Shown here: positions 11,636 to 29,234 of the stretch, one piece after another
Layout of the letters: every line of letters starts with the position of its first letter
Position numbering within the stretch: position 1 is the first letter of the stretch
Sequence record: SRR22947727_2287
Direction: 5' to 3' (one strand)
Length of the DNA: 42,969 bases
Translations under genes and position numbers: made by a program
Notes under the pieces: model-generated
Database searches by the model: none
Told to the model about the DNA's origin: nothing
Seen by the model: the letters and a program-made list of their open reading frames with translations, nothing else

Positions 11636-12328
11636 ATGTCACAAAAAATATTAATTATTGAAGATGAGCCAGATATAAGAAAGACCTTAGAGTATAATAT
11701 CTCTAGAGAGGGATATCATGTTGTTAGCGCATCATCATTGGTAGAAGCTAAATCTCGGTTTGAATCAGACTCCTTCTCTTTAATACTTTTAGATTTAATG
11801 CTTCCCGATGGTTCAGGTTTGGATTTATGCAGGGAGATTAAATTGGATAAAGAGAAATCTTCCATTCCAATAATAATTTTAACAGCTAAAGATGACGAGG
11901 TTGATAAGGTTGTCGGTTTTGAGCTTGGTGCTGATGATTATGTTACTAAGCCATTTAGTGTAAGAGAGCTCATTCTTAGGATGAAAGCAGTCTTAAAAAG
12001 AGGAGAAAAAAAATCAGATAATGTTGAGGTTCAAAGACAATTTGGACAATTATCTATCAACACAGAGTCCCATGAAGTTTTTGTAGATGATAATGAAATA
12101 ACTCTTACTGCCCTTGAATTTAAATTACTATGTCAACTTGTTGATAGAAGAGGCAGAGTTCAATCTAGAGATCAGTTATTGTCTGATGTTTGGGGTTATA
12201 GTGCTGAAGTTACAACAAGAACAGTAGATACACATATTAAGCGTTTAAGAGAAAAGCTTGGCAGTATGGGTAAGTATGTTCAAACTATAAGGGGAGTTGG
12301 TTACAAGTTCACAAGAACCCCTGATTAA
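11636..12328 (+). CDS. phoB: OmpR-family response regulator, probable PhoB/PhoP
   Basis: IEDE, LLDLMLP, GADDYVTKPFS, and winged-helix TRTVDTHIKRLREKL...TIRGVGY. Sits within a phosphate-gene cluster. Confidence 0.8.
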   Translation: MSQKILIIEDEPDIRKTLEYNISREGYHVVSASSLVEAKSRFESDSFSLILLDLMLPDGSGLDLCREIKLDKEKSSIPIIILTAKDDEVDKVVGFELGADDYVTKPFSVRELILRMKAVLKRGEKKSDNVEVQRQFGQLSINTESHEVFVDDNEITLTALEFKLLCQLVDRRGRVQSRDQLLSDVWGYSAEVTTRTVDTHIKRLREKLGSMGKYVQTIRGVGYKFTRTPD

Positions 12329-12330
12329 AT

Positions 12331-14100
12331 ATGGGCATTAGATCCCGAATTTTTTTATTAGTATTTATTTCTCTTAGTATAAGCATCACTGTTTCTTACA
12401 TTATTGCTGAGAGAGATCTAACAAAAACTTTTGAACAACAAATTGTAGAGCAACTTCAAAGACAAGCATCCTTACTTGTTGAATATATTGATGAGGTTGA
12501 TGAATTACAAGTAAATAATAATGCAGATTCTATTGCCGATAGACTGGGTAAAGCATCAAATTCAAGGGTGACTTTAATATTAAATAACGGCACTGTTATT
12601 GGAGATTCATATATAGATCAAATAGAGCTTGCTTCTCTAGAAAATCACAGCAATAGAGAAGAATTTATTGAAGCAATAAATAATGGCTTTGGTTGGTCAT
12701 CAAGATATAGCAACTCTGTTCAACAACAACAACTTTACTTTGCTATAAGAGACAAGAATGAAGTATCACCCAATATTATAAGAATTGCAGTTCCTTATAC
12801 CTATCTAGATAAAGCTATTCAAAGTTTAGACTTATCCATATTACTAGTTGCCATGGTTGCATTATTGGTTGCAACTATTGCTAGTGGTGTTGCAGCTAAC
12901 TATACATATACAAGCATTGCAGAACTTGCTAATGCTGCATCAAATCTCGCTGGTGGCTCGCTTAAGAAAAGCTCTATTAAAGCATTGCCAACAGATAGAG
13001 TTGATGAATTTGGCAATGTAGCCAGAAGTATTTCGCAAATATCAGAAGATTTAAAATCTCAAATTAATTTATTAGCTAAGCAAAGAGATGAGTTTGGGTC
13101 TGTGCTCGATGATCTTGGTGAAGGAATTATGGTTGCAAACAAGGGAGGCCAAATAACCTATTGCAACGAACAGTTTTTACTAATATTGAATAGAAAAAAT
13201 ATTATAGATCTAGATATAAAAGATTTAGATGTTAAATCAATACAAAGTCTCTATAAAAAAACAAAAAGGACTAAATCTGCTGATATAGAGTTTGAGATTG
13301 AAAATAAAGATAAGTCTACTAAATGGATTCTAGCTTCAATGAATCAATCAAAAACAAGTAAAGAATTTATATTAGTTATTCATGACATAACCCAACTTAG
13401 ACAGTTGAGCTCCATGAGAAGAGACTTCATTTCAAATGTATCGCATGAATTAAGAACCCCTGTGAGCGTTATTAGAGCAAATTCAGAAACTTTATTGCAG
13501 GGAGCGCTAGATGATAAGAAGCAAGCAAAAGTTTTTTCTAAAGCAATTTTGCACAACTCCGAAAGATTAACCGAAATGGTAACAGACCTACTAGATCTCT
13601 CAAGAATAGATCATGGAGAATTGAAACTTATAATAGAAGAAATTGATATAAAGCATTCTATTTATGAGGTTATTGACTCCCTTAAACATCTTGGTAAAAA
13701 GAAAAACATTTCTATAGAGTGTATGTGTCCAAGCAAGCCTCAATATGTTTTGGGTGATAAAAAAGCACTTGAAAGAATACTAACAAATCTAATTGATAAT
13801 GCATTTAAGTACAGTGAAGAGAATTCAACTATTACTATCAATACAAAAACAAAAATTAAAGATGAAAATATAATCATTTCTGTCTCTGACACAGGTCGTG
13901 GTATATCAGATGAAGATAAGTTATTAATTTTTGATAGATTTTTTAGAACAGCTGAGGCTAGAGCTTCCGAGAAAAAAGGAAGTGGGCTTGGCCTGGCTAT
14001 TGTTAAAAATCTAGTAAATAGTCTTAACGGTGATGTGGGTGTTAAAAATGCTGCCAACAAAGGTTCTAAGTTTTGGTTTACACTCCCGTTAGGCAAATAA
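12331..14100 (+). CDS. phoR: Sensor histidine kinase, probable PhoR
   Basis: Two TM helices around an extracytoplasmic domain with ENHSNREE, then HAMP- and PAS-like segments, MRRDFISNVSHELRTP H-box, NLIDNAFKY, DTGRGI and GSGLGLAIVK. Confidence 0.85.
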   Translation: MGIRSRIFLLVFISLSISITVSYIIAERDLTKTFEQQIVEQLQRQASLLVEYIDEVDELQVNNNADSIADRLGKASNSRVTLILNNGTVIGDSYIDQIELASLENHSNREEFIEAINNGFGWSSRYSNSVQQQQLYFAIRDKNEVSPNIIRIAVPYTYLDKAIQSLDLSILLVAMVALLVATIASGVAANYTYTSIAELANAASNLAGGSLKKSSIKALPTDRVDEFGNVARSISQISEDLKSQINLLAKQRDEFGSVLDDLGEGIMVANKGGQITYCNEQFLLILNRKNIIDLDIKDLDVKSIQSLYKKTKRTKSADIEFEIENKDKSTKWILASMNQSKTSKEFILVIHDITQLRQLSSMRRDFISNVSHELRTPVSVIRANSETLLQGALDDKKQAKVFSKAILHNSERLTEMVTDLLDLSRIDHGELKLIIEEIDIKHSIYEVIDSLKHLGKKKNISIECMCPSKPQYVLGDKKALERILTNLIDNAFKYSEENSTITINTKTKIKDENIIISVSDTGRGISDEDKLLIFDRFFRTAEARASEKKGSGLGLAIVKNLVNSLNGDVGVKNAANKGSKFWFTLPLGK

Positions 14101-14102
14101 GC

Positions 14103-14142
14103 ACTTAACAAATCTGTAACATTCATACACATTTCGAAACAA
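14103..14142 (+). promoter_or_regulatory. Pho-box-like site upstream of the large lipoprotein gene
   Basis: ACTTAAC-AAAT-CTGTAAC (14103-14120, 11-bp period) followed by degenerate units. 14104-14142 matches 3704-3742 at 26 of 39 positions without gaps. Confidence 0.6.
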
Positions 14143-14230
14143 AAATTTAGCATTTATTTTCAACTTCTCCTCACTAACTTTTCGCAAGTCAAGTTAAATA
14201 GATTCATATTTCCTTGGAGGAGAGTAATTT

Positions 14231-17173
14231 ATGTTCACTAAATCATTTAAAAACATTTCATTTATAACAACAATCTTTGTATTAACCGCATGTGGTGGTG
14301 GCGGTGACACCTCAATTGCTTCACCTGGTGAGTTAGGTTCACTTGATGACCCAACTGGTGGGGGAGGAACGGGCGGCTCAAGCAGTAACGTTCTTACTGG
14401 TTCTTGTCCTGAATCTGAATTTATTACAAATGGATCTCCTGTAGCTGGAAATACTGTTTGTGCTATTGAAGGCCCAATAACAGGCGAGTTAACTTTAACT
14501 AACGATGTAATGTATAGAATGTTAAATAAAGTAGATGTTGGTGTAGACATGGGTGGTGACGGTACCAAAGCTGGTGGCGTATCTGGAACGCTAACAATAC
14601 CTGCTGGTGTTGTTATCATGGGTAAAACGTCCAATGATTACCTAGTTGTTAATAGAGGTTCAAAGTTAATAGCAAATGGAACTAGATCAAAACCTATTAG
14701 ATTCACTCATAATACTGCTATAGAAGGCACGGTTGGTGAGCTCGAAAGAGGCTTGTGGGGTGGAATAGTTATTTTAGGTAAAGCCCCAATAAATAAATGT
14801 TCAAATGATGTAAGAGGAACTGCTGCTTGTGAAAGTGTTGTAGAGGGTTCTGATGCTCTTATGGGCGGAGCCACACCAGACGATAATTCTGGAAAACTAA
14901 ATTTTGTAAGAGTTGAATATGCTGGCTATGAGATTTTTCCTGGTAATGAATTAAACGGTATTACTTTTGGTGGAGTTGGGTATGGAACAGAGGTAGATTA
15001 TGTTCAGGTTCATAATAATCAAGACGACTGTGTAGAGTTCTTCGGTGGAACTGTTAATGTTAAACACTTAATTTGTACTAATGCAGGTGATGATAATCTA
15101 GATATAGATTGGGGTTATCAAGGAAAAATGCAGTTTGTTGTTGTTAAACAATCATCCGATACAAGCGATCATGTAGTTGAGTCTGATAATACCAATGCAG
15201 ACTCAGCGGTTGGCTTTTTAACAGAGCCAAGATCAAGGCCAATGGTTGCAAACTTTACTTTTCTAGCTCAAGGCGCTGACGAACCATTGAAATATAAAGA
15301 AGGTGTTTCTGGTATTTATATTAATGGAATAGTAGTAAATGCTAATTCACAAAATCTTATTGAATCAACAAATTTAGAAACAATTCAAGATGGCGCTTTA
15401 ACACCTAAACTTCAGCATCATTCTATCTTTATGGATTCTGCTGGTGATACTTCACCTTTTAAAGCTGATACAGATTCTAGTGGAGTAACAGCGGCACAAT
15501 TAGAAGCTTCCTTAAAAGAAAGAGCTACAGATTTAGTTCTTGGGACAAATACTCTAGTTTCAGGCATGTTCCTTGGTGATGCCGAAGAAGCTGTTGTTTC
15601 TGCATTTAATGGTTCAAAAGTTCAAGCTATGTGTGCAGTAGGCCCTCATTCAGCAGGCACCCCAACTGAATTGTGCCCAACATATAGTTCAAAAGAAGGA
15701 AGATACATTGTAGATACATGGTTTTCAGCAACTGATTATATTGGTGCATTCTCACCTGGTTCTGATATTGAGAACAATTGGGCATCTGGCTGGACAATAG
15801 GCTTATTTACAGCCCCTGAATGCCCTAATGGTACTCTTGAGTCCGAAGTGCTTTTAGGTAAAAAAGTATGTAGTCTATCTGGTGAAGTTATAGAAGACAT
15901 TTCACTTGTTGCTGGCAACTATTACAAATTAGATGGAAAAGTAGCCATTGGTAAAGATATGGGTGCTGATGGAACTAAAACTGGTGGAGTAAGTGCTAAA
16001 TTATCTATTGAACCAGGCGTTACAATTTTTGGTGAGTCTGGAAATGACTATTTAGTAGTTATGAGAGGTTCAGATATTCATGCAGTTGGCACTTCTTCAG
16101 CTCCAATAGTTATGACTGGAAGACAGGATATATTAGGCGAGGCTGATATTGTTAATACTCGTGGTTTGTGGGGCGGATTAGTAATTTTAGGTCAAGCACC
16201 TATAAATAAATGCTCATTTTCAACGGCAGGTTCTTCTTCTAGCGCTGGAACAAGAGTTAATCCATGTGAAAAAGAAGTAGAAGGTTCATCTGGCGATACT
16301 ATGGGTGGTGAGCTACCTAATGATAGTAGCGGATCATTGAAATATGTAAGAGTTCAATATGCAGGATATGAGGTTTTCCCTGGAAACGAACTTAATGGAA
16401 TTACTTTTGGTGGAGTTGGTAATGGAACTGTTGTTGATTATATCCAAGTTCATAATAATCAAGATGATTGTGTCGAATTTTTTGGTGGCACTGTTGATGT
16501 TAAACGTTTAATTTGCACTGGTGCTGGTGACGATAATCTAGATATAGACTGGGGATATCAAGGCAGAATGCAATATGTATTAGTTCAACAATCAAATGGA
16601 GTTGGTGACCATGTCGTTGAATCAGATAATACTAATGCTGATGCTGCTGTAGCCTACTTAACAGAACCAAGATCTAATCCAATAGTTTCAAACTTTACTT
16701 TCCTAAGTAGTGGTAAGGATGAAATATTTAAATTAAAAGAAGGTGTTTCTGGTCAATACTATAATGGCGTGGCTGTTGTTAAAGATGGCTCCACTAATTG
16801 TATAGAAACAACTTTTGCAGAAACTGCTCAAGATGGCGCTGTTACTCCTCACTTCTCTATGAATTCAGTGGCAATGGAGTGTAATGGTTTTGTTAAAACT
16901 GATGGATTAGCAACTGTTGCTTCAATTGAGGCTATTGTAAAAGAGGGTGCTAATAACTTGTATGGAGCAAATTCTGGAAGTGGTTCTTATGTGAACACAC
17001 TCAGCGGTCCTGTTAATGGATCATCTGAGTCAGCTGCTACAGTGACAACAATTCCTGATAAATATAATGCTGATGGTTTCTTTGATACAACTGATTACAT
17101 TGGTGCTATTAAGGGTGCTACAGATACTTGGTATAAGAACTGGACACTTTCTGGAACTATAGACGTCCAATAA
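14231..17173 (+). CDS. Large lipoprotein with two tandem beta-helix-like domains (ElpS-like family)
   Basis: SD GGAGG, lipobox LTA-C followed by a Gly/Ser linker, and two copies of RGLWGG.VILG.APINKC...YAGYE.FPGNELNGITFGGVG.GT..DY.QVHNNQDDCVEFFGGTV...AGDDNLDIDWGYQG. Confidence 0.85.
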   Translation: MFTKSFKNISFITTIFVLTACGGGGDTSIASPGELGSLDDPTGGGGTGGSSSNVLTGSCPESEFITNGSPVAGNTVCAIEGPITGELTLTNDVMYRMLNKVDVGVDMGGDGTKAGGVSGTLTIPAGVVIMGKTSNDYLVVNRGSKLIANGTRSKPIRFTHNTAIEGTVGELERGLWGGIVILGKAPINKCSNDVRGTAACESVVEGSDALMGGATPDDNSGKLNFVRVEYAGYEIFPGNELNGITFGGVGYGTEVDYVQVHNNQDDCVEFFGGTVNVKHLICTNAGDDNLDIDWGYQGKMQFVVVKQSSDTSDHVVESDNTNADSAVGFLTEPRSRPMVANFTFLAQGADEPLKYKEGVSGIYINGIVVNANSQNLIESTNLETIQDGALTPKLQHHSIFMDSAGDTSPFKADTDSSGVTAAQLEASLKERATDLVLGTNTLVSGMFLGDAEEAVVSAFNGSKVQAMCAVGPHSAGTPTELCPTYSSKEGRYIVDTWFSATDYIGAFSPGSDIENNWASGWTIGLFTAPECPNGTLESEVLLGKKVCSLSGEVIEDISLVAGNYYKLDGKVAIGKDMGADGTKTGGVSAKLSIEPGVTIFGESGNDYLVVMRGSDIHAVGTSSAPIVMTGRQDILGEADIVNTRGLWGGLVILGQAPINKCSFSTAGSSSSAGTRVNPCEKEVEGSSGDTMGGELPNDSSGSLKYVRVQYAGYEVFPGNELNGITFGGVGNGTVVDYIQVHNNQDDCVEFFGGTVDVKRLICTGAGDDNLDIDWGYQGRMQYVLVQQSNGVGDHVVESDNTNADAAVAYLTEPRSNPIVSNFTFLSSGKDEIFKLKEGVSGQYYNGVAVVKDGSTNCIETTFAETAQDGAVTPHFSMNSVAMECNGFVKTDGLATVASIEAIVKEGANNLYGANSGSGSYVNTLSGPVNGSSESAATVTTIPDKYNADGFFDTTDYIGAIKGATDTWYKNWTLSGTIDVQ
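14405..17170 (+). repeat. Intragenic tandem domain duplication (about 14405-15800 and 15821-17170)
   Basis: The conserved core is offset by 1440 nt (compare 14941 with 16381). Amino acids are nearly identical there while many third codon positions differ. Confidence 0.92.
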
Positions 17174-17210
17174 TAAGAGTGATAACAAATAATTTTTATT
17201 GGAGAAACAA

Positions 17211-19838
17211 ATGAGAACAACAATAGACCAATTTAATAAAACAAAATATAAAGCAGCTATTAGTTTATTGCTAATAGCTCCTTTTATGATTGGCCAAGAA
17301 ATTGAAGAAGTTGTAGTAAGCGGTTCATTTATTCCAGATGAAAAAAGAGATACATCTGAAATATCAGCAATCTTAGATTCTTCTGAAATTGAAAGAACCG
17401 GTGATGACAACATCGCAGTTGCTTTAACTAGACTTACTGGCCTAAGTTTAGTTAGAGGTAAGTATGTTTACGTTAGAGGCTTGGGTGAAAGATACTCTGC
17501 GGCAACCTTGAATGGCTCCAATTTACCCAGTCCAGAGCCATTAAAGAGAGTTGTGCCACTTGATTTATTTCCTACTCAAATAATTAATTCATCGGTGATA
17601 CAAAAAACTTATTCTGCTGACATGCCTGGAGAGTTTGGTGGAGGTATTATTGAAATAGAGACCAAGCCAGCTCCTTCAGAGAGAATATTAGATTTCTCTT
17701 TTTCATCTGGATTTAATGATGCAACAAGTTTGTCTGATGGTTTGTTATATGATGGCGGAAGTGATGATGACATCGGATATGACGACGGCACTAGAGATTT
17801 TCCTAATATGGTGCAAGAAGCTATAAATAGAAATCAAAAATTAGATAGATCTAATTTTCAAACATACGAATTAGCAAATGCTGGTCGTGAATTTGAGAAT
17901 TCAAAGTTGTGGGTTATCCAAGAGGGAGAAGTTCCTTTAGATTCATCATTTAATTTTACTTATGGAGATGAGCTTGATATTTCTATTGATGAAATACTTG
18001 GAGATTCAAGTGCAACTTTTGGTGTTATGTTTACTGCGGGTATGAGAAGCTCATGGGATACGCAGGATGGTACTCGTCAAACTGGAACACTTCAAGCGCA
18101 AGGTGATGGTACTGCCGATGTTATTGTATCAAATGATAAAACATTTTTAAGTACCTCTAACGATGTTACATCCTACGCGATGTCAGTTCTTGGAATTGAT
18201 ACAGATTCTTATGAACTTAAATATACTGGTATGTATATTCACAAGGGAACAAAAAGAGCAAGAACTCTTCAAGGTTACGACTCAAGTGATGCTGGAAATG
18301 TTAGAGAAGATTTCACAGAGTTTTTTGAGAGAGAATTGACCAATAATCAAATTAACTATACATATTTATATGATAGTGGAGCAGAGCTAGATTTAAGATT
18401 AACTTCTGGAGAAGCATCAAGACATTCACCTTATGAAAGAGTAGTATTTTATGAAGATACTGATGATAGAGGTTTCTGGAGATATGATGTCAATACAGGA
18501 AGAAACCAAACTCAGTTTAGTTATGTTAACGATAAGAATGAGAATATAGGTCTAGACTTAACTTATCCTATCCAAATTTTTGAAACTGATGCTGTTTTAA
18601 AGGTTGGCTATGATTTAACTGAAAATAACAGAGATGCTCAAGTTAGAAGTTATAGATTTTTAGCAGAAGGTGGGCCTATCCCTCAAGATGGTTTAGATAA
18701 TAGAATTGATTACATTTTTGAAGATAAAAACTTTGACCCTTCAAGATTAATTCTAATAGAAAATACAGCAGCATCATCCCCAGCTGGTTATCAGGGTGAA
18801 CTTACCACCGATTCAATGTATTTGACGCTAGATACGTATATAAATGAAAAGTATAGACTTGCTGTTGGTGTGAGATCTGAAAATGGTGAGCAAATGGTAA
18901 ATACATATGATGTATTTCAGCCCGTAGATTTAAATATAGAAAAGGTTCTTGATGAAGATTATATGCTGCCATCATTCACTCTTACATATTTACCTGAATT
19001 CAACGAAAATCTACAATTTAGATTAGGTCTATCTCAAACTATAGCAAGACCAACATTTAGAGAGCTTTCACCAACATTATTTATAGATGTTGATACTGAT
19101 AGAGTTATTGCAGGTTCATTGTATTTAGAAAATACAGAGCTTGATAATATTGATTTTAGAGCAGAGTACTATTGGAGTACTAATCAATTTATAACCGCTG
19201 GATTATTTTATAAAGATATATCTAAACCTATTGAAGAAGTTGTTAATGAGTCAGGTGACCTTATTGTTACCTCTTATCAAAATGTTCCTGGTGCTGAATT
19301 AACCGGTTTTGAGTTAGAGTATGAAAGAGTATTTGAAGACTTATTACCAAACTCATCTTGGGGCAATTCAAAGGAATTTCTTTTAAAAATGAATCTTACT
19401 GCTACTGAATCAGAAGTTATATATGGAGCTAATGATACTTATGTAAATAGCCAAGGATCATTAATTAATGCTGCTTCATTATTTGCAAATGGAAGAGACA
19501 CACGTCTTCAAGGTCAATCAGATATTATTGGAAATATTCAATTAGGTTGGGATGATTTCCAAAACGGATCTCAAGGCACATTAATTATTAACTATGTGAG
19601 TGATAGAGTTCGTGCGAGAGGTATAGATGTTCTTCCGGATGTTATTGAAGAACCTCCACTTTTAGTTGATTTTGTATATTCAAAAGAAATATTCTACGAT
19701 ACTTCAATATTAAAGCTATCTTTAGAGCTCAGAAACCTCTTAGACGAAGAGTATTATGCATCAATGGCTTCTTCAGTTATTTACGATCAATATAAACTAG
19801 GTACCTCAGTCTCACTGGGTGTTAAGTTTAGTTTTTAA
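17211..19838 (+). CDS. TonB-dependent receptor
   Basis: GGAG SD precedes ATG 17211 (preferred over TTG 17199). TonB box IEEVVVSG, plug motifs YVYVRGLGERY and VPLDLFP...KTYSADMPGEFGGG, ARPTFREL, NLLDE, and C-terminal VKFSF. Confidence 0.93.
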   Translation: MRTTIDQFNKTKYKAAISLLLIAPFMIGQEIEEVVVSGSFIPDEKRDTSEISAILDSSEIERTGDDNIAVALTRLTGLSLVRGKYVYVRGLGERYSAATLNGSNLPSPEPLKRVVPLDLFPTQIINSSVIQKTYSADMPGEFGGGIIEIETKPAPSERILDFSFSSGFNDATSLSDGLLYDGGSDDDIGYDDGTRDFPNMVQEAINRNQKLDRSNFQTYELANAGREFENSKLWVIQEGEVPLDSSFNFTYGDELDISIDEILGDSSATFGVMFTAGMRSSWDTQDGTRQTGTLQAQGDGTADVIVSNDKTFLSTSNDVTSYAMSVLGIDTDSYELKYTGMYIHKGTKRARTLQGYDSSDAGNVREDFTEFFERELTNNQINYTYLYDSGAELDLRLTSGEASRHSPYERVVFYEDTDDRGFWRYDVNTGRNQTQFSYVNDKNENIGLDLTYPIQIFETDAVLKVGYDLTENNRDAQVRSYRFLAEGGPIPQDGLDNRIDYIFEDKNFDPSRLILIENTAASSPAGYQGELTTDSMYLTLDTYINEKYRLAVGVRSENGEQMVNTYDVFQPVDLNIEKVLDEDYMLPSFTLTYLPEFNENLQFRLGLSQTIARPTFRELSPTLFIDVDTDRVIAGSLYLENTELDNIDFRAEYYWSTNQFITAGLFYKDISKPIEEVVNESGDLIVTSYQNVPGAELTGFELEYERVFEDLLPNSSWGNSKEFLLKMNLTATESEVIYGANDTYVNSQGSLINAASLFANGRDTRLQGQSDIIGNIQLGWDDFQNGSQGTLIINYVSDRVRARGIDVLPDVIEEPPLLVDFVYSKEIFYDTSILKLSLELRNLLDEEYYASMASSVIYDQYKLGTSVSLGVKFSF

Positions 19839-19851: not shown

Positions 19852-19882
19852 ATATGGGCTACAATAGTAGCCCTATATTTTT
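19852..19882 (+). terminator. Stem-loop between the TonB receptor and gspC (partial terminator or mRNA stabiliser)
   Basis: GGGCTAC-AATA-GTAGCCC (19856-19873) followed by TATATTTTT, directly before the gspC ATG. Confidence 0.6.
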
Positions 19883-20284
19883 ATGTTAAATTTTAAACTC
19901 ATTAAAAAAGTATCTTTATCTGCACTGATAATACCTGCGGTATTTATTATATTTTTAATTATTTCCTCTAATATTGATAAACCAAAAATATTAAAATTAG
20001 ATAATATAAATCTTAATGATTTCAAAACTAACTCTCCATCAATAAAAGAAGATGAAATCTTAATTGAAGAAAATAATCAAGTAGAATTTAACTACAAATT
20101 AATTGGTATAAGATCTGGAAATGAAGACTCTTCTGTAATTGTTAAAAAAGGAAATAAAGAATTTCTTGTTGTACTTGGAGACATTCTTGAAGGCTCATTT
20201 GAACTTGTCGAGGTAAACCAAAATGATGCTTTATTCCGTAAAGGGCAAAAAATGTATAGAATTGAGAGACAAAAAGATAAATAG
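19883..20284 (+). CDS. gspC: Type II secretion protein C-like (TM plus HR domain, no PDZ)
   Basis: N-terminal TM, YKLIGI...SSVIV...GD.L...LVEV HR-domain pattern, and position directly before gspD. Confidence 0.7.
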   Translation: MLNFKLIKKVSLSALIIPAVFIIFLIISSNIDKPKILKLDNINLNDFKTNSPSIKEDEILIEENNQVEFNYKLIGIRSGNEDSSVIVKKGNKEFLVVLGDILEGSFELVEVNQNDALFRKGQKMYRIERQKDK

Positions 20285-22152: not shown

Positions 22153-23652
22153 ATGTCTGATACAGAAGTAAGACACAATACCTTTAATATTTTTCCGTAT
22201 GACTTTGTAAAAGAAAATCAAGTTATAGCAAATATTACTAAAGACGGTTATGAGGTTATTTCACCCAATAAAATATCACCTGATTTATATCATGAAATAT
22301 ACAAGTTCCTAAAAAATGACTTTATTTTAACTTTATGTAATGCAGAAAATTTTAATGAATTATTAACTAATACTTTTTCTATTAATAATGCATCTAATGA
22401 TATTTCTGAGGAGTTATCCGATGAGTTTGATCTTCAAACTTTTGCTGGATCTATTTCTGCCACTGAAGATTTACTTAGCGGTTCAAATGATACTCCTATA
22501 ATTAAGTTAATAAATGGAGTAATTAGTCAGGCAATTAAAGCTAGGGCATCTGATATACATTTTGAGCCCTATGAAGATAGAATTGTTGTTAGGTTTAGGG
22601 TGGATGGAATTCTTAGGGAAGTTCTTTCTCAAGATAGCAAGATTTCATCTGTTTTAATATCAAGAATAAAAATTATTTCAGGCTTAGATATCTCAGAAAG
22701 AAGACTGCCTCAAGATGGCAGGGTATCTCTTTCCCTAGGAGATAAAAGTATTGATGTGAGAGTTTCGACTTTACCTTCGTCATATGGTGAGCGAGTTGTT
22801 TTAAGACTTCTTGATAAGCAATCGGCTCAAATAAACATAGAAGATTTAGGTCTGCCATCTAAAATACTTTCAAACTACAAATCTTCTCTTAAGAACCCTG
22901 AGGGTATAATTTTATTCACAGGGCCTACAGGTTCAGGAAAAACTACTACTTTATATGCAGGTCTAAGGTACTTAAGTGATTCTTCACAAAATATACTTAC
23001 AGTAGAAGACCCAATTGAATATACGTTGAGAGGGATAGGCCAGACCCAAGTAAATCCTAAGACAGGGTATACATTTGCCAGAGGTCTTAGAGCAATTCTC
23101 AGACAAGATCCAGATGTCGTAATGGTTGGTGAAATGAGAGATGTTGAGACAGCTCAGATTGGTATTCAAGCAAGTTTAACAGGGCATTTAGTTCTTTCAA
23201 CAGTTCATACAAATAGTGCTATTGCAGCTATTACAAGATTGAGAGATATGGGTATCGAGTCTTTTTTGCTAGCTTCTAGCTTAAGAACAATAATCTCTCA
23301 GAGACTTGTAAGAAGATTGTGTTTGGATTGCAAAAAAGAAGAAGTAGCTTCAACTCAAGCACAAAAACTATTTAATTTAGATTCATCTCAAAAGGTGTGG
23401 AGCTCAATTGGTTGTAGTTCATGCTCTCACACAGGCTATCAAGGAAGAATTGCTATTGCAGAATGCATACAGATAGACAAAGAATTAAAAGAATTAATAC
23501 ACAATAATGCATCAGAAAATGCAATAGCAAACCATGTATTTAAAGAGAATAAATCTATTGATGATGCATCTCTAGAATTACTAAAAAATGGTACTACCTC
23601 TTGCGAAGAACTTATAAGAGTTGGAAATCTGAAAGAAGATGTCAACATTTAA
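22153..23652 (+). CDS. gspE: Type II secretion ATPase E
   Basis: ASDIHFEP, RLPQDGR, Walker A GPTGSGKTT, VEDPIE, LRQDPDVVMVGEMRD, and CxxC...CxxC. Confidence 0.96.
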   Translation: MSDTEVRHNTFNIFPYDFVKENQVIANITKDGYEVISPNKISPDLYHEIYKFLKNDFILTLCNAENFNELLTNTFSINNASNDISEELSDEFDLQTFAGSISATEDLLSGSNDTPIIKLINGVISQAIKARASDIHFEPYEDRIVVRFRVDGILREVLSQDSKISSVLISRIKIISGLDISERRLPQDGRVSLSLGDKSIDVRVSTLPSSYGERVVLRLLDKQSAQINIEDLGLPSKILSNYKSSLKNPEGIILFTGPTGSGKTTTLYAGLRYLSDSSQNILTVEDPIEYTLRGIGQTQVNPKTGYTFARGLRAILRQDPDVVMVGEMRDVETAQIGIQASLTGHLVLSTVHTNSAIAAITRLRDMGIESFLLASSLRTIISQRLVRRLCLDCKKEEVASTQAQKLFNLDSSQKVWSSIGCSSCSHTGYQGRIAIAECIQIDKELKELIHNNASENAIANHVFKENKSIDDASLELLKNGTTSCEELIRVGNLKEDVNI

Positions 23653-24835
23653 CTATACAGCTCTTGATAAGCTAGGAAAAAAGAAAAAAGGAGTACTTAG
23701 TGCTCAGTCCGAAAGAGAAGCAAGAAAATTTATAAAAGACCTTAATTTCACCCCTATAACAGTTACTCAGTCAGAGGGTGTTAGGGGTATAAAATCTAAA
23801 TTTAAAAACAAAGATATAGTAATTATGACAAGGCAAATAGCAACGCTTCTAGAGGCAAATATGTCCATCATAGATGCTTTAAAAATTACTGCAGATCAGA
23901 TAAATAATAAAGATCTTATAACTATCTTATATAGCCTAAGAGAGGATGTAATCCAGGGTAAAAGGCTTGGTCAGTCGATGATGAAGTACCCTGGAGTATT
24001 TAATAATACATATTCATCACTTGTTACGGCAGGTGACTCGTCAGGAAATCTGGATACTATATTTAATAAATTAGCAGACTATCTTGAAGAAAGTGCTTCA
24101 ATACGCCAAAAAGTTATTTCAGCATTAACCTACCCATTTATATTAATTGGTTTTTCGATCATAGTGATAATATCTCTTTTAGTTTTTGTTTTACCTCAAG
24201 TAATCAATCAGTTCATTAAAGCGGGAGCTGAACTACCATTAATTACAAAATTATTACTTGGTTTGTCTAATAATATATTTATTATTCTCTTTGTTATTTT
24301 GGCCATGTCTATAGGCTTAACTCTTTTATACAAGAAGTTCATCTCTCAGAAAAATAATCATATATCGGCCCATAAACAGTTTCTTAAGATCCCGCTTATA
24401 GGTAATTTTATTCTAACTTCAGAAATTGAAAGGTTTTCAAGCACCATGGCTTTGATCATGGAATCAGGAACTAATTTAGATACTGCCTTGGATGAGTCTG
24501 CTAAAGTTTTTAATAATAAATATTTAAATAGTCTAATAATTGAAGCTAAAAATGATGTTATTGAGGGTAAAGACTTTATATATTCATTAAATCAAACAAA
24601 TATTTTTCCAGAAATATTTATTCAACTTATATCAAGTGGTTATAAATCTGGAAATATAATTAAAATGTTTCATAAATCCTCAAGTTTTTTAAAGAACGAA
24701 ATTGAAACCAAAAGATCTATTTTCTTATCATTACTAGAACCTCTTGTTATTATTTTTATGGGCGGATTTATAATGTTAATAGTTCTAGCTATACTTATAC
24801 CAATAATGCAAATGAACACACTTTCCTTGGGATAA
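23639..24835 (+). CDS. gspF: Type II secretion inner-membrane protein F
   Basis: FNYTALD..GK, TRQIATLL, AGDSSGNLD, SALTYP, LLEP and AILIPI motifs. Confidence 0.95.
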   Translation: MSTFNYTALDKLGKKKKGVLSAQSEREARKFIKDLNFTPITVTQSEGVRGIKSKFKNKDIVIMTRQIATLLEANMSIIDALKITADQINNKDLITILYSLREDVIQGKRLGQSMMKYPGVFNNTYSSLVTAGDSSGNLDTIFNKLADYLEESASIRQKVISALTYPFILIGFSIIVIISLLVFVLPQVINQFIKAGAELPLITKLLLGLSNNIFIILFVILAMSIGLTLLYKKFISQKNNHISAHKQFLKIPLIGNFILTSEIERFSSTMALIMESGTNLDTALDESAKVFNNKYLNSLIIEAKNDVIEGKDFIYSLNQTNIFPEIFIQLISSGYKSGNIIKMFHKSSSFLKNEIETKRSIFLSLLEPLVIIFMGGFIMLIVLAILIPIMQMNTLSLG

Positions 24836-24840: not shown

Positions 24841-25269
24841 ATGAAAAAGAATGAAAAAGGTTTCACGTTAATAGAATTAATGGCTGTTCTGGTAATACTT
24901 GGAATACTTGGAACTATAGTTGTTGTAAATGTTGCTCCAGTATTTCAAAGAGCAAATCTAGAAAAAATAAAAGCTGATATAGCTCAGACTGAAAAAGCTT
25001 TAGAAATGTATAAATTCAATGAACTGCAATATCCAACAACATCTCAAGGACTCGAGGCTTTAATTATTCCAAATGCCTCATTAAGGAATCCTTATTTATT
25101 TCCTGAGGATGGTTACATATCTTCTTTGCCTTTAGATCCATGGGGTAGGGAATACCTTTATGAATTCCCACCAAGAAAATCAAAAAAGTTTGATTTATAT
25201 ACACTAGGATCAGATGGAATGGAGGGTGGTACTGGAGATGACACTGACATCGGCAACTGGATGCAATAA
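24841..25269 (+). CDS. gspG: Major pseudopilin G
   Basis: KG-FTLIELM prepilin motif, YPTTSQGLEALI, PLDPWGREY, and GSDGMEGGTGDDTDIGNW. Confidence 0.96.
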   Translation: MKKNEKGFTLIELMAVLVILGILGTIVVVNVAPVFQRANLEKIKADIAQTEKALEMYKFNELQYPTTSQGLEALIIPNASLRNPYLFPEDGYISSLPLDPWGREYLYEFPPRKSKKFDLYTLGSDGMEGGTGDDTDIGNWMQ

Positions 25270-25753
25270 ATTATCTAAAGGTTTTACACTTATTGAAATA
25301 TTAATAGTCCTTATTATAATCGGAATAGCTTCATCATTAATATTTTTAAATTTTAGTTCCGCTTCATCAATTGCAAAGAACCAGTCCTCTTTTCAAAATG
25401 CTTTTAATTTTCTTACAGAGGAAAGCATTGTTACTGGCAATATAATCGGCTGGCATGCAAATAATGAAAATGAGTTTTCTTATATTTTAGATTATAAAAA
25501 TACATTCATAGAAAACTTAGATAACCCATATTCTAATAATTGGAATAATTTATCACAATTTAGAAAAACTTATCAATCGTCTGATGGGTCTATAATTGAT
25601 TTTGAAAATTACAAAGAGGATTTACCTTTAATAATATTTTATCCGTCCGGAGAAAACTCAGGTGGAATAATTAGTATTTTTCTTAATGACTACATTCAAC
25701 AAATTACTATAAATACAAATGGAAAGATTATTTCTGAAATCACTTCGGATTAG
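25238..25753 (+). CDS. gspH: Minor pseudopilin H
   Basis: KG-FTLIEIL motif and IIFYPSGE. Start is uncertain; ATG 25238, overlapping the gspG 3' end, is preferred over 25214. Confidence 0.85.
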   Translation: MTLTSATGCNKLSKGFTLIEILIVLIIIGIASSLIFLNFSSASSIAKNQSSFQNAFNFLTEESIVTGNIIGWHANNENEFSYILDYKNTFIENLDNPYSNNWNNLSQFRKTYQSSDGSIIDFENYKEDLPLIIFYPSGENSGGIISIFLNDYIQQITINTNGKIISEITSD

Positions 25754-26105
25754 CAGAGGCTTCAGTCTAATTGAGGTTGTTGTTGCTTTATTTATATTAA
25801 GCACGTCAATAATAGTTATATATAATCTAATTTTATCAACCAACGTTTCTATTTTTAATTTACAAGATCATTATCTATCTAAAGAGGTTGCAAATAATAG
25901 GATTGCATTAATACATTCTATTGAAAAACCAAGTATTAATTCATATAGGGATGGTTATATGGAAATGGGTGGAAAAACTTGGGAGTGGCAAGAAAATTTT
26001 AAAGAAGTCGATACAAAAGATTTCATAAAATACGAAATACTAATCAAATTAAAAGATTCTGAGAGATACATATATAGAACAGAAGGGTTTATAGTAAATG
26101 AATAA
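25719..26105 (+). CDS. gspI: Minor pseudopilin I
   Basis: RG-FSLIEVVVAL motif, VANNRI, GYMEMGGKTWEW, and operon position. Confidence 0.88.
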   Translation: MERLFLKSLRISRGFSLIEVVVALFILSTSIIVIYNLILSTNVSIFNLQDHYLSKEVANNRIALIHSIEKPSINSYRDGYMEMGGKTWEWQENFKEVDTKDFIKYEILIKLKDSERYIYRTEGFIVNE

Positions 26106-26694
26106 TAAAGGATTCACTATAATAGAGGTATTAGTGACCCTAATTATCTTGTCAATGATAGCTATAATCACCTCAAATATTTTACAATCTTCATTAGAAT
26201 CTGAGAAAGAGTCTACTCAACGCCTAAATTCAATAAAAGAACTTAACTTAGCATCTAGTATTTTAAGAAGAGATATCAGGCAAATTGCTAATGTTTCTAT
26301 AAAAGATTTCTATGGCAATAAGATGTATGGAACATTTATTAGTGAATTAAACTCAGATAATTTAATGTTTACAACCAAGGTAAAGTCTTTTTCAAATGCA
26401 GTATCTCCTCTTAAAAGAGTTCAATATGTGGTTGAGGACAAGAATTTTGTTAGAAAACAATATTACTCTTCAAACCCATACAACCAAGATGAGTATGTAA
26501 AGTCAATCATCATAAATGATATTGACAAGCTCCAGTTATATTTCTTGAATGAAAATAAATGGCATCAATCTTGGCCGGTTAGTCCAATTACTTCAAAAAA
26601 AATACCAACTCTTATAAAGATTGAGTTCAGTTTAGACAATAAAGACTATAACTGGATTATCAATCCAAATATTGATTATGCATTACAAAACTAA
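26098..26694 (+). CDS. gspJ: Minor pseudopilin J
   Basis: KG-FTIIEVLV motif, LRRDIRQ, RVQY, WHQSWP, and operon position. Confidence 0.88.
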   Translation: MNNKGFTIIEVLVTLIILSMIAIITSNILQSSLESEKESTQRLNSIKELNLASSILRRDIRQIANVSIKDFYGNKMYGTFISELNSDNLMFTTKVKSFSNAVSPLKRVQYVVEDKNFVRKQYYSSNPYNQDEYVKSIIINDIDKLQLYFLNENKWHQSWPVSPITSKKIPTLIKIEFSLDNKDYNWIINPNIDYALQN

Positions 26695-27643
26695 AGGAGT
26701 TGTATTAATTTCAGTCCTCCTAACTGTTTTATTGCTATCCTCTATTGCTGTAGTAATTGGTAATAACTACTTTGTTTCTTTTAAAAGAGCTCAGTATTTA
26801 GAATTCCAAACGGTATCCTTAAATATTTTTTCAAGCATAGAATCGTTAGCATTAAAAAAAATTGACAATGAATTAAGGTTTAATTCGAAAGTCCATGCTA
26901 ATAATAACGCTCTTTTTAGCAATGATTTTATATTTGAGACTCAAAAGGGTTTGGTTAGTGGAAAAATTATAGATGCTTCAAATTGCTTTAATATCAATGC
27001 TTTACTTAAAAAAACTAAGAACACTTACAAACCTAATAAGGATAATATTGTTATTTTTAAGAGATTGTTAATGTTTAGTGAGGTTGAAAATAATTTAATA
27101 GATGAAGCTATTGATCAAATTATAGATTGGATTGATGAGGATGATAACCCAAGAGCTTTTGGCCTTGAAGATTACTATTATTCAGGACCACTTAATAATC
27201 CAAAAGAATACACATCAGGAAGAACTTTTTATAGTATTCAAGAAATTAAAAGCTTGCCAGCAATAAGAGCTATAGGTTGGGAGGTCTTTATGAAATACTT
27301 CTGTGCACTTCCTCACAATGATTTATCAATTAATATAAATACGATTACGGGGAATAAGTCATTACTCCTAAGCTCTTTATTTGAAAACCTTTCTTACAGT
27401 GATGCTGAATATGTTATTGATAACATTCCCGAGAATGGCATCAAGAACCTAAACGAACTATCAGATTTATTTCCATCATATAATTTAGAAAAGTCTCAAG
27501 ATTACATCAAGTTCTCTTCAAATACCTTTGAATTAATAACAAGTCTTTCATATGAGAACTATTATTCAGAATCTAAAAGTAAAATTTACTATGGCGCTAA
27601 TAATAATAGCTATATTACTTCAAGAATTTATAATGGTATTTAA
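26672..27643 (+). CDS. gspK: Minor pseudopilin K
   Basis: KG-VVLISVL (no Glu+5, typical of GspK), CFNINAL, IIDWIDED, CALP and ININT motifs. Confidence 0.9.
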   Translation: MIMHYKTKGVVLISVLLTVLLLSSIAVVIGNNYFVSFKRAQYLEFQTVSLNIFSSIESLALKKIDNELRFNSKVHANNNALFSNDFIFETQKGLVSGKIIDASNCFNINALLKKTKNTYKPNKDNIVIFKRLLMFSEVENNLIDEAIDQIIDWIDEDDNPRAFGLEDYYYSGPLNNPKEYTSGRTFYSIQEIKSLPAIRAIGWEVFMKYFCALPHNDLSININTITGNKSLLLSSLFENLSYSDAEYVIDNIPENGIKNLNELSDLFPSYNLEKSQDYIKFSSNTFELITSLSYENYYSESKSKIYYGANNNSYITSRIYNGI

Positions 27644-28792
27644 ATGAGTCTATACATAGCACATATATTAAACATCAATGCAGATTCTATTAATGTGTAT
27701 GAGCAAACCAATTCTAAAAGCTCTATGTTTAATATCTCCTCTCTAGCCGAATTAAATATACTCAATGAGTCTGACAGTCTTTTAGTCTTAATTCCGTCAT
27801 CAACAGTAACCTCTTATGAGTTTGAAGAAAATAAATCGCTATCAAAACAAATAAATATTGCTAATTTTATCTCTGAGGTTGATTCGTCTTTTGCTGACCC
27901 GGTTTCTAATAATGATTACTTTCTTCATAATAATGCCGCATATGTTGTAGATAAATTTTTCTTAAAAAACTTAAATACATCCTTGAGTGAATTAAATACA
28001 AAGATCTATGTTTTACCTGAGTATTTAATAAATGTAGTTGAAGGAAATGATGTAATAACAGAGTTTGAAGGCAGATTTATGATTTCTTATTCAAATAAAA
28101 CTGGTTTTGCATTGGATCACAATTCCCTAAGCCAATACATAGAAATTGTATTAAATAAAAATCCAAATTTTAATCCACTAATTTTTAGCACAAATAAGGA
28201 TCTTTTAAATAGGTTTGGTGAAAAAGTTATAAATAAATCATTTGATATAAGTAGTATTGATCTTTTAGATATTAATAACCTGCCAAATTTTTTTAAATTA
28301 CAAATTTCTTTAAGTTTATTTAGTAAAAAGATGAATTTATCAAAAATACAAATCGCAATAAGTCTTCTAGCTTTATTTATTGTTATGGCAGGGCCAAAGT
28401 ATTTAATTTATGAAAATAATACTAATGCAAAGATTTATTCATCTTCAACTTTTACTATATTTAAAGCTATAGATAAAGACGTAAATAGAGTGATTGCTCC
28501 TAAATCGCAAATAGATCAAATATTAGAACAATTACCTGAATCACATTTTTCTTCTGTGGAATTACCTAATTTAGATATATTTTTAAAATATGGAGCTAAT
28601 TATATTTCAGACATTTCTATTGATGTTAATACTTCTGTTATATCAATAAAAATAAATTCTATGCCAGATTTCCAATTTAATATTTTAAAAAATAATGCAG
28701 AAAGATTTAATATCAACATAATAAATGATGACCTTAATTCAATTGATGGCTTTAAAAATGGCATCCTCAAGGTTGGGTATAGAAATGAATAG
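27644..28792 (+). CDS. gspL: Type II secretion protein L (divergent)
   Basis: Position after gspK, large N-terminal cytoplasmic domain, single TM near residue 240, and LLVLIPS and VLPEYL patterns. Confidence 0.65.
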   Translation: MSLYIAHILNINADSINVYEQTNSKSSMFNISSLAELNILNESDSLLVLIPSSTVTSYEFEENKSLSKQINIANFISEVDSSFADPVSNNDYFLHNNAAYVVDKFFLKNLNTSLSELNTKIYVLPEYLINVVEGNDVITEFEGRFMISYSNKTGFALDHNSLSQYIEIVLNKNPNFNPLIFSTNKDLLNRFGEKVINKSFDISSIDLLDINNLPNFFKLQISLSLFSKKMNLSKIQIAISLLALFIVMAGPKYLIYENNTNAKIYSSSTFTIFKAIDKDVNRVIAPKSQIDQILEQLPESHFSSVELPNLDIFLKYGANYISDISIDVNTSVISIKINSMPDFQFNILKNNAERFNINIINDDLNSIDGFKNGILKVGYRNE

Positions 28793-29234
28793 CTTCTTAA
28801 ACGATCTTCAAGTCAGAGAAAAAAAATTATTACTTGGAGCTTTAGTCTTAATTTTTTTATTTGTAGTTTTTGTTTATATTAATTCTGTATATGACGAATA
28901 CTTAATATCTAAAAAAAATCTAAGTAAAGCAAAAAGTGATTATGAATATGTATACAAGAAGGTATCAACATTAAAATTATATCTAGATAGAGCTGTTCTT
29001 AACGAATCTAATATTAATTTAATGATCACCGCTAATGACTTAGCTGGCCTAATCTCTGATCTTAGTATTGATAAAACAGATGAATCAGTTTCAGTGGTAT
29101 TTCAAGCAAAGGATGCGACTAGTGCAATCAATTTATCTGAAAATATTATAAACAAAACAGAATTACAGATAAATAAAATAAATTATAAAAACTTTAATGA
29201 TAGTATTGGCGTAATTCTTGAATTTAATTTCTAG
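28785..29234 (+). CDS. gspM: Type II secretion protein M (divergent)
   Basis: LQVREKKLL followed by a TM helix and a coiled segment is typical of GspM. ATG 28785, overlapping the gspL end, is preferred over 28725. Confidence 0.7.
   Translation: MNSFLNDLQVREKKLLLGALVLIFLFVVFVYINSVYDEYLISKKNLSKAKSDYEYVYKKVSTLKLYLDRAVLNESNINLMITANDLAGLISDLSIDKTDESVSVVFQAKDATSAINLSENIINKTELQINKINYKNFNDSIGVILEFNF

Follow-up and report, generated by a model that had tools for sequence, protein, structure and literature searches.

Do the genes for a two-component pair, a surface lipoprotein, a TonB-dependent receptor and a type II secretion system (T2SS), lying side by side in the DNA of a SAR86 bacterium, form one system for the acquisition of phosphorus, and is such a system new? 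The question is raised by positions 11636 to 29234 of sequence record SRR22947727_2287, a stretch of 42,969 nucleotides (nt) that was analysed as a whole and is called the window here. An earlier note, made from the sequence alone, had read this span as a self-contained unit of sensor, cargo, receptor and secretion machinery for phosphate starvation, and had named it the best candidate in the window for an undescribed system. We find that the system is real and that this reading was largely right in kind. The SAR86 cluster is a new arrangement of building blocks known from Caulobacter and Flavobacterium, and it probably represents the SAR86 version of the phosphorus-scavenging outer-membrane system typified by the Caulobacter lipoprotein ElpS.

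Layout of the locus and sample of related loci

Every open reading frame (ORF) between 11636 and 29234 lies on the plus strand. According to Pfam and NCBIfam scans their order is a PhoB-like regulator, a long PhoR-like kinase, a lipoprotein of 980 amino acids (aa), a TonB-dependent transporter and the T2SS row gspC to gspM, the latter comprising eleven genes (19883-29234). Regulator and kinase genes are separated by 2 bp, kinase and lipoprotein genes by 130 bp, lipoprotein and receptor genes by 25 bp, and receptor gene and gspC by 44 bp. Within the gsp row the spacing is 0-6 bp, or neighbouring genes overlap. The ORF list and the family scans thus bear out what had been noted before, namely that all genes from phoB to gspM are co-oriented with very small gaps.

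Gene order was compared in the best 80 matches of a genome scan, which fall into 69 distinct loci (L001-L069). Because these loci are the best matches of the scan, the frequencies reported below are not population estimates. The scan used two search patterns, only one of which fits the SAR86 sequence. Proteins of the window were mapped onto the loci by tblastn, and domain copies were counted with a profile derived from the family alignment.

The lipoprotein and its family

The lipoprotein gene (14231-17173, plus strand) starts with a signal peptide whose hydrophobic stretch is followed by the lipobox LTAC (L18-T19-A20-C21), and continues with a tether rich in Gly, Ser and Thr (residues 22-56); signal peptide and tether together occupy 14231..14398. 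Cys21 is not followed by Asp, and by an established rule the lack of Asp after the lipobox Cys fits sorting to the outer membrane. A lipobox, searched for as a regular expression, is present in most of the related proteins as well. The remainder of the protein consists of two ElpS-type beta-helix domains. Copy 1 (residues 57-526; 14399..15808, plus strand) is supported by the stretch found in an hmmsearch with the family profile (5-527) and by the beta-helix strands of the AlphaFold2 (AF2) model, copy 2 (residues 527-980; 15809..17173, plus strand) by homology and the AF2 model. The copies are 50% identical to each other (E 1e-142).

Invariant Asp, Glu and Asn residues occupy consecutive rungs in the family alignment and occur in both copies of two-domain proteins. 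In the window protein the acidic set is kept as D265, D266, E269, D287, D288, D291 and E317 in copy 1 and as D745, D746, E749, D767, D768, D771 and E797 in copy 2. The AF2 model of copy 2, computed with 50 aligned sequences, reaches a pLDDT of 90.7 and a pTM of 0.92 and predicts a succession of short strands that is confidently modelled as a right-handed beta-helix-like fold. For the full-length protein (pLDDT 81.4, pTM 0.74) both domains are predicted to be similar, with residues 1-56, where pLDDT falls below 50, and residues 462-494 modelled as flexible.

At E<=1e-3 an exhaustive phmmer search yielded 5664 cluster representatives. The top 150 include many proteins of 880-1000 aa in which two stretches match, and some in which three to seven do. 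All homologues listed by a word-indexed search carry a precomputed PF28492 annotation, which corresponds to Beta_helix_4 of Pfam 38.1 according to the protein atlas; there the clusters of Beta_helix_4 proteins are automatically named "pectate-lyase like beta helix". Pfam, NCBIfam and PDB sequence searches with the window lipoprotein itself gave no match, in the case of Pfam because the PF28492 model is newer than the release scanned. Open-access papers and bioRxiv yielded no mention of "PF28492".

Single-domain relatives (480-520 aa, 37-41% identity) were found in Phenylobacterium, Brevundimonas, Hyphomonas, sphingomonads and Luteimonas. In Caulobacter sp. CCH9-E1 (L035) a single-domain lipoprotein, P0273, matches copy 2 with 37% identity over 446 residues (E 7e-81). 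It has the lipobox LAGC and is followed by a TonB receptor and then by gspD, E, F, G and J, so that it stands at the position of ElpS (cc0170) in the gene order. Because of this match the window lipoprotein is assigned by sequence to the ElpS family, via a positional orthologue in a Caulobacter species and not via ElpS itself. The comparison of the lipoprotein halves with the ElpS type, proposed earlier as a check, has thus turned up homology, both through PF28492 and through the Caulobacter sp. protein.

The doubling of the domain had been regarded as special, which it is not. One copy occurs in 27 of the 69 loci, two in 33 and three in 9 (two or three in 42), where L039, with one copy spread over two ORFs, was entered as two, and where L010, L014, L045 and L066 reach contig ends; the many two-stretch homologues of 880-1000 aa point the same way.

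Three side observations concern the same family. Lipoproteins of 1170-1380 aa with three tandem ElpS-type domains are encoded in L019, L022, L029, L040, L058-L060, L063 and L069, their hosts being Halieaceae, Alteromonas and Pseudoalteromonas, and representatives in the protein library reach seven matched stretches. The ElpS-like gene of Xanthomonas arboricola pv. guizotiae (L039, 9530-11275) is split into two ORFs, 9530-10456 and 10508-11275, which together make up one domain; this is either a frameshift or a sequencing error. A metagenomic protein of 383 aa (P0130) combines PAS_9 and HisKA domains with 160 residues that are 77-78% identical to lipoprotein residues 677-835, and probably does not represent a genuine fusion but stems from a contig that is chimeric or misassembled.

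The receptor and the conserved gene order

The partner of the lipoprotein is a TonB-dependent transporter (17199..19838, plus strand) with a Pfam plug domain at residues 49-144. It matches TIGR01782, "TonB-Xanth-Caul", over residues 47-879 with 185.7 bits, below the cut-off of 310, and inspection of its N-terminal sequence revealed no signalling extension. Of the 62 loci whose sequence extends 1.5 kb or more beyond the lipoprotein gene, 59 have a homologous receptor gene that starts no further than 700 bp downstream of it; the exceptions are L028, L044 and L047. Among the 58 loci with 6.5 kb or more of downstream sequence, gspD follows in 20, while L027 and L042 carry gsp genes upstream instead. 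This linkage to a T2SS recurs in SAR86, several alphaproteobacterial families and Xanthomonas. A PhoB-like regulator with a kinase lies nearby in 17 of the 69 loci.

Given these frequencies, none of receptor, T2SS, phoBR and multiple domain copies is unusual individually. All three linkages (receptor, T2SS and two-component pair) occur together, among the sampled loci, only in the SAR86 loci L001 and L002, in addition to the window. Both share the exact order of the window including an upstream AMP-binding gene, and amino-acid identities to the window range from 43 to 82%, lowest for gspC and highest for the lipoprotein. The synteny survey suggested by the earlier note has thus shown the linkage of lipoprotein, receptor and gsp genes to be conserved. 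A lack of ElpS-type homology or of such linkage had been named there as speaking against its reading; since homology was found and the linkage is conserved, neither objection holds.

A FastTree phylogeny of the 59 receptors, unrooted and made with a quick method, is split with a branch support of 97. One side holds gammaproteobacterial loci that are linked to phoBR and have no T2SS. The other holds Alphaproteobacteria, Xanthomonas and SAR86, and with them all T2SS-linked loci. Since the SAR86 receptor falls on the T2SS-linked side, we regard the SAR86 unit as one of the Caulobacter type. The receptor of this gammaproteobacterium thus stands apart from the clade of Alteromonadales, Rheinheimera and Halieaceae and groups with the T2SS-linked clade of Alphaproteobacteria and Xanthomonas. 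Such a grouping may reflect an ancient transfer in which the lipoprotein, receptor and T2SS genes moved as one block.

The two-component pair

The regulator (11636..12328, plus strand) combines a receiver with an OmpR-type DNA-binding domain (Pfam Response_reg, Trans_reg_C). Its best NCBIfam matches are PhoB, TIGR02154 (240.6 bits, cut-off 296.2), and the Bacteroidetes-type PhoB, NF053854 (236 bits, cut-off 270). In L001 and L002 it is 74-79% identical and found at the same position. The kinase (12331..14100, plus strand; 589 aa) is composed of a first transmembrane segment, a periplasmic domain, a second transmembrane segment, HAMP, PAS, HisKA and HATPase, as judged by Pfam and the N-terminal sequence. 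Its scores are 301.7 bits for PnpS (cut-off 400), 233.6 for proteobacterial PhoR (334) and 218.9 for Bacteroidetes PhoR (500), and WalK is also below its cut-off. The Bacteroidetes PhoR model NF053855 spans the kinase end to end (5-585 of 583), and the architecture is that of the long Bacteroidetes-model type, not that of the proteobacterial type of 433-443 aa. The periplasmic domain of approximately 140 aa is sCache-like; compared with PDB it gave HAMP matches alone and nothing informative. Homologues with 60-98% identity to the kinase fall into numerous clusters from marine Gammaproteobacteria; some of these comprise hundreds of proteins, and some bear the name PhoR in the JGI annotation. 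The kinase is therefore a conserved gene of its lineage and not a one-off.

That the cluster has its own phoBR was seen as a further special feature. Genuine phoBR genes, however, adjoin the lipoprotein and receptor genes in Alteromonadales, Rheinheimera and others. The adjoining pairs of Rheinheimera (L015), Alteromonas (L058) and a Pseudomonadales genome (L054) are bona fide PhoB/PhoR above the NCBIfam cut-offs. Regulators beside the lipoprotein-receptor pair in other Gammaproteobacteria score 331-374 bits, and their kinases are short (433-443 aa). Such a neighbourhood has also been published for Flavobacterium johnsoniae (PMC8115612).

Pfam and NCBIfam scans revealed no pstSCAB or phoU genes in the window. 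The binding-protein-dependent ABC importers described for SAR86 serve oligopeptides and ferric iron only, and phosphate uptake is attributed to facilitator-type carriers (Dupont et al., PMC3358033). Since no other importers of this kind are described there, the absence of a Pst system is implied for SAR86. If this holds for the present genome as well, its PhoR should be one that functions independently of PstSCAB, which is a lead and not a result.

The promoter region and Pho-box-like sites

The 130-bp promoter region in front of the lipoprotein gene contains phased heptamers (ACTTAAC, CTGTAAC, ..., TCGAAAC, ATTTAGC; 14103..14151, plus strand), which could form a weak Pho-box-like array. Sites were scanned for with the E. 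coli-type Pho-box consensus and with a degenerate form. With the former no site of up to three mismatches was found in 14101-14230, and the whole window has a single match within three mismatches, below chance expectation. The best site of the degenerate consensus is ACTTAACAAATCTGTAAC at 14103-14120, with three mismatches.

Alignment with L001 and L002 uncovers a conserved block that contains CTG(T/A)AAC and, approximately 21 bp further on, TTGT(C/A)AC-AAAA-(C/T)TGT. In this block L001 has the near-consensus site TTGTCACAAAACTGTAAG with one mismatch (background 0.006), and L002 has a site with two mismatches (background 0.078). Among the 68 loci with sufficient upstream sequence, the 250 bp preceding the lipoprotein gene contain a site of no more than one mismatch in 20 and of no more than two in 40. 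In 34 of the 68 a site as good occurs in fewer than 5% of equal-sized stretches of that locus. The region upstream of the regulator gene has no conserved Pho-box-like site in the comparison with the relatives. The Pho-box-like site that had been reported after phoR is consequently weak and at chance level in the window itself, and what stands is the block conserved in two SAR86 relatives, one of which has the one-mismatch site.

A second approach counted TGT[AC]AC hexamers. They occur six times in 2349 intergenic bases of the window where 2.0 are expected, none of 500 shuffles exceeded six, and their density in intergenic DNA is roughly fourfold that in coding sequence. Such hexamers precede the lipoprotein gene, the genes for the second receptor and phytase, and the small ORF at 3762, and they also occur in the interval that separates ppk2 from the Pit-type carrier gene. 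Phosphate control is well supported for the ElpS-type gene family across Proteobacteria; for the window's own genes it is plausible, judged by these motifs.

Far upstream, positions 3683-3740 hold six heptamers of the TGTnAC type within 58 bp, including the perfect palindrome TGTCACA-TT-TGTGACA and an overlapping promoter-like pair TTGACA/TAACAT. This array is flanked by a photolyase-related gene (2112-3605, minus strand) and an ORF with a signal peptide and no family (3762-4202, P0394). It could be a strong array of Pho boxes, or else serve as operator for a different regulator.

The hairpin and the type II secretion system

Between receptor gene and gspC the terminator scan found a stem-loop followed by a T-run (19856..19873, plus strand), a putative terminator or attenuator. 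Its folding energy is -19.8 kcal/mol (z -5.4), and none of 200 shuffles was equally stable. The hairpin is kept in L001 and L002 with a compensatory change from G-C to A-T in the stem. Because this conserved element precedes gspC, lipoprotein and receptor genes probably constitute a strongly expressed two-gene unit, and the gsp genes would be transcribed by read-through or from a promoter of their own. This reading fits the expression of the T2SS in both rich and poor media in Caulobacter (PMC2996285).

The secretin gene gspD (20290..22146) scores 440.6 bits with TIGR02517, above the cut-off of 351. The ATPase gene gspE (22153..23652) matches Pfam T2SSE with E 6.4e-144 and TIGR02533 with 601 bits (cut-off 630), and gspF (23639..24835), encoding the inner-membrane platform, matches Pfam T2SSF with E 3.9e-51 and TIGR02120 with 358.5 bits (cut-off 424), the TIGR scores of both being below the cut-offs. 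Then follows the pseudopilin block gspG-K (24841..27643), with NCBIfam matches throughout and N_methyl motifs in G, H, I and J. Above their NCBIfam cut-offs are gspG (24841-25269, 142 bits), gspI (25719-26105, 50 bits), gspJ (26098-26694, 71 bits) and gspK (26672-27643, 177 bits), while gspH (25214-25753) has GspH as its best match with 57.9 bits, below the cut-off of 80. All these genes, as well as the following, are on the plus strand.

The genes gspC, gspL and gspM were assigned by position and size, since their family matches are weak or absent. The gspC-like gene (19883..20284) encodes 133 aa with one N-terminal membrane span, has a weak match to Pfam T2SSC (E 0.012) and is 43-46% identical in L001 and L002. 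The gspL-like gene (27644..28792, 382 aa) has one hydrophobic span near residues 236-256 and no family match in Pfam or NCBIfam, and the gspM-like gene (28725..29234, 169 aa) matches Pfam T2SSM weakly (E 0.067). No gspN was found in the window. A prepilin peptidase gene (7128..7931, minus strand; Pfam A24_N_bact E 6.6e-20, Peptidase_A24 E 8e-9) lies outside the reported span, and its GspO-like product is probably an accessory of the T2SS.

A T2SS row is therefore present, as had been claimed, with GspD, G, I, J and K above their cut-offs and C, L and M placed by position. Its description as a secretion unit that exports the lipoprotein goes too far: in Caulobacter the T2SS is needed for release and not for arrival at the surface (PMC2996285).

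Phosphorus-related genes in the neighbourhood

Directly after gspM follow two genes for the breakdown and use of polyphosphate, ppx (29224-30087, minus strand; Pfam Ppx-GppA, NCBIfam) and ppk2 (30084-30923, minus strand; Pfam PPK2, NCBIfam), which diverge from the gene for a phosphate transporter of the PHO4/Pit type (31053-32300, plus strand; Pfam PHO4, NCBIfam). The promoter region shared by ppk2 and the Pit-type gene contains a TGTAAC hexamer at 30991. Further downstream Pfam identifies a second TonB-dependent receptor (33050-35590, plus strand) and a beta-propeller phytase with a signal peptide (35647-36717, plus strand). A Pho-box-like site with two mismatches precedes this receptor gene (32961-32978, minus strand), and a TetR-family gene diverges upstream of the receptor and phytase genes. 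F. johnsoniae, too, has an entry for a TonB transporter beside a phytase (Fjoh_1368; PMC8115612).

Near the ends of the window we note a PhoD-like protein with a signal peptide and a partial Pfam match, together with a lipoprotein-like ORF without a family (5196-6008), within 4237-6008, and genes for a glycerophosphodiester phosphodiesterase (GDPD) and an acyltransferase at 40577-42496. By its gene content the whole window of 43 kb reads as a phosphorus-acquisition neighbourhood.

Proposed mechanism and alternative explanations

How could such an ElpS-type system work in SAR86? Judging from its relatives, phosphorus scarcity would cause the regulator to turn on the lipoprotein-transporter unit. 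The lipoprotein would be lipidated, routed to the outer membrane and shown on the cell surface by means of its tether. There the two beta-helix domains with their conserved acidic grooves may bind a phosphorus-bearing substrate, and possibly cleave it, before the lipoprotein passes it on to the transporter in the manner of the lid lipoprotein of a SusC-type transporter. Periplasmic enzymes and the neighbouring Pit-type carrier could then recover the phosphate. The T2SS may be coupled to the surface life of the lipoprotein, either in its release or processing, as in Caulobacter, or in its display. Because of the intervening hairpin it would be transcribed at a lower or separate level.

A further-reading proposal, which we make tentatively and consider rather unlikely, is that in a SAR86 without Pst the lipoprotein and the TonB transporter are themselves the high-affinity route of phosphorus uptake. 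The acidic grooves, probably loaded with metal, would capture dissolved phosphorus, for which polyphosphate, phosphoester polymers and metal-phosphate complexes are candidates, and a PhoR with a periplasmic domain would sense without Pst. If true, this would be a TonB-powered mode of phosphorus acquisition in one of the most abundant heterotrophs of the ocean, and it would provide a substrate for a family of thousands of uncharacterised proteins.

Several observations weigh against the scavenging system as outlined above. Regulator and kinase remain below every curated PhoB/PhoR cut-off, and the kinase has a periplasmic domain, which proteobacterial PhoR lacks. The Pho-box-like site of the window is at chance (140 such sites found versus 152 expected, and present in 30% of equal-sized stretches of the window), and the stretch aligned to the L001 site has approximately five mismatches. 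The hairpin between receptor gene and gspC speaks against a single, tightly co-regulated transcript. For the modelled domain Foldseek returned weak and generic parallel beta-helix matches in PDB (best E 1.8e-3, TM at most 0.35, 7-13% identity), namely phage tailspikes, pectate lyases and polygalacturonases, which would fit a glycan-active protein equally well. We know of no family member with a known substrate. In Caulobacter the surface exposure of ElpS is independent of the T2SS, ElpS had no phosphatase activity when purified or immunoprecipitated, deletion of elpS left the phosphatase activity of the supernatant unchanged, and the receptor cc0171 is reported as constitutively expressed (PMC2996285). 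A co-fold of the related pair BT4055-BT4056 gave few high-confidence contacts (preprint 10.1101/2023.03.17.533168).

The fold neighbours lead to the first alternative, a glycan-acquisition unit in which the lipoprotein is a surface polysaccharide lyase, hydrolase or binder, the receptor imports oligosaccharides and the phosphate genes are mere neighbours. All structural neighbours are carbohydrate-active beta-helix proteins or tailspikes, and the conserved Asp-rich rungs are reminiscent of the acidic rungs with which such enzymes perform catalysis or bind Ca. BT4056 is assigned to the pectin-lyase superfamily by InterPro (10.1101/2023.03.17.533168), and the F. johnsoniae lipoproteins FI and FII were modelled on polygalacturonase, with plant cell-wall targets suggested (Lidbury et al., PMC8115612). 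Since the neighbours are generic and the sequence databases silent, no enzymatic function can be assigned. The weakness of the fold matches counts against the glycan unit too, and so does expression: ElpS and Fjoh_0546 respond to phosphate and not to iron or nitrogen (PMC2996285, PMC8115612). Moreover, Pho-box-like sites lie upstream in about half of the 68 loci, phoBR is adjacent in 17 of 69, and neither a carbohydrate-active enzyme nor a sugar transporter was found in the window by Pfam and NCBIfam scans. We hold this explanation to be clearly unlikely. A glycan or phosphorylated-glycan target would nevertheless be compatible with the modelled beta-helix fold, and a phosphorylated glycan would reconcile both readings.

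The sub-threshold scores of the two-component pair allow a different view of regulation, in which the pair is a dedicated sensor of the receptor substrate or of an envelope signal and induces the unit by substrate and not by starvation. The sCache-like periplasmic domain of 140 aa with its HAMP domain would suit such a sensor, as would the above-threshold pairs of Rheinheimera, Alteromonas and the Pseudomonadales genome, next to which the window pair falls short, the chance-level Pho-box match and the lack of a conserved site upstream of the regulator gene. Yet PhoB models are the top matches of the regulator, the Bacteroidetes PhoR model covers the kinase over its full length, JGI gives the name PhoR to close homologues, and the kinase forms one family across many SAR86-like genomes. 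The near-consensus Pho box of L001 also argues for starvation control, and the importer repertoire of SAR86, which implies no Pst, lets a Pst-free PhoR be expected (PMC3358033). We regard a dedicated sensor as quite doubtful.

That the T2SS is a general housekeeping system which merely adjoins the lipoprotein-receptor unit and has no specific role for the lipoprotein in SAR86 is very unlikely: the conserved terminator-like hairpin, the approximately two thirds of related loci without nearby gsp genes, the Caulobacter T2SS that is on in rich and poor media and dispensable for surface exposure, and possible alternative substrates with signal peptides (phytase, PhoD-like protein) would agree with it, but proximity of T2SS genes to the unit is seen repeatedly, in SAR86 as well as in several alphaproteobacterial families and in Xanthomonas, release of Caulobacter ElpS needs the T2SS and its overexpression without a T2SS is toxic (PMC2996285), and eleven genes would hardly be kept here by chance in a streamlined genome.

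Significance of the locus

In the surface ocean SAR86 ranks with the most abundant heterotrophs. To our knowledge it has no cultured representative, and its phosphorus economy is for this reason known from genomes only. The locus places in SAR86 an ElpS-type lipoprotein-transporter pair that occurs in hundreds of genera and, in both organisms with expression measurements, is under strong phosphate control. Regulator, outer-membrane unit, T2SS and genes for polyphosphate, phytate and phosphate transport all lie within 43 kb, and so compact a locus would lend itself well to experiments on the ligands of the family. It could also be used as a marker of phosphorus stress in SAR86 populations. The interest of the locus stems chiefly from the abundance of its host and from the function of the family as a question.

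Comparison with known systems

Both pairings that make up the cluster are already published, the one of ElpS, receptor and T2SS (PMC2996285) and the one of phoBR, transporter and lipoprotein (PMC8115612). An account of the cluster in SAR86 was not found among the matches listed from open-access papers and bioRxiv. Of the claim that the system is undescribed, the SAR86 combination is what remains.

The closest known system is that of Caulobacter crescentus. ElpS (cc0170) is a lipoprotein of approximately 50 kDa with the lipobox LAGC at residues 17-20, cc0171 is a TonB-dependent receptor, gspC-N follow directly, and gspO, which points the other way, is found close to the cluster (Le Blastier et al. 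2010, PMC2996285). The arrangement was also reported for Xanthomonas campestris, Sphingomonas (now Sphingopyxis) alaskensis and Hyphomonas neptunium, and ElpS is produced under phosphate starvation only (PMC2996285). The facts stated in the earlier note, a starvation lipoprotein, a receptor upstream of the T2SS genes and release through the T2SS, are correct by this account. According to a later study the PhoB regulon of Caulobacter takes in the T2SS and TonB receptors (PMC11208175). The window agrees with Caulobacter in the order of lipoprotein, TonB receptor and gsp genes, in a prepilin peptidase gene nearby on the other strand and in a receptor of the same clade. It differs in that its lipoprotein has two tandem domains where ElpS has one, in that gspN is missing from its row, in the PhoB/PhoR-like pair directly upstream and in its host, a streamlined marine gammaproteobacterium.

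In F. johnsoniae the PUSIV cluster comprises phoBR, the TonB transporter Fjoh_0545 and the lipoprotein FII, Fjoh_0546 (Lidbury et al. 2021, PMC8115612). The Fjoh_0545/0546 cluster is up 8-10 log2-fold on phosphate depletion, and FI, FII and FIII share 31-36% identity with ElpS across half of their length (PMC8115612). Common to both systems is a phosphate two-component pair beside a TonB transporter and an ElpS-related beta-helix lipoprotein, the relation to Fjoh_0546 being taken from the papers. The regulator and kinase of the window also resemble Bacteroidetes-type and proteobacterial PhoB/PhoR models to roughly the same degree. Judging by the locus tags, the transporter gene precedes the lipoprotein gene in F. 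johnsoniae, whereas the window has the reverse order. Unlike the window, Bacteroidota have no adjoining T2SS.

BT4056 of Bacteroides thetaiotaomicron, a homologue of ElpS, has been proposed as the lid of the non-SusC TonB transporter BT4055, and pairs of this type are reported to be adjacent in 621 genera, 171 of them Proteobacteria (10.1101/2023.03.17.533168). This preprint discusses neither regulator nor secretion genes, both of which are present in the window. What the two systems share is the idea of a surface lipoprotein that caps its transporter, the lid role being a prediction there.

The Hxc T2SS of Pseudomonas aeruginosa is said to be controlled by Pho and to secrete LapA. It would thus offer a parallel for a phosphate-controlled T2SS beside a phosphate-scavenging cargo, with the difference that LapA is an alkaline phosphatase and not a beta-helix lipoprotein, and that no TonB receptor is part of it. 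Set against these systems, the SAR86 arrangement is an extension of what has been published and not a system of a new kind, its novelty being limited to the SAR86-specific combination.

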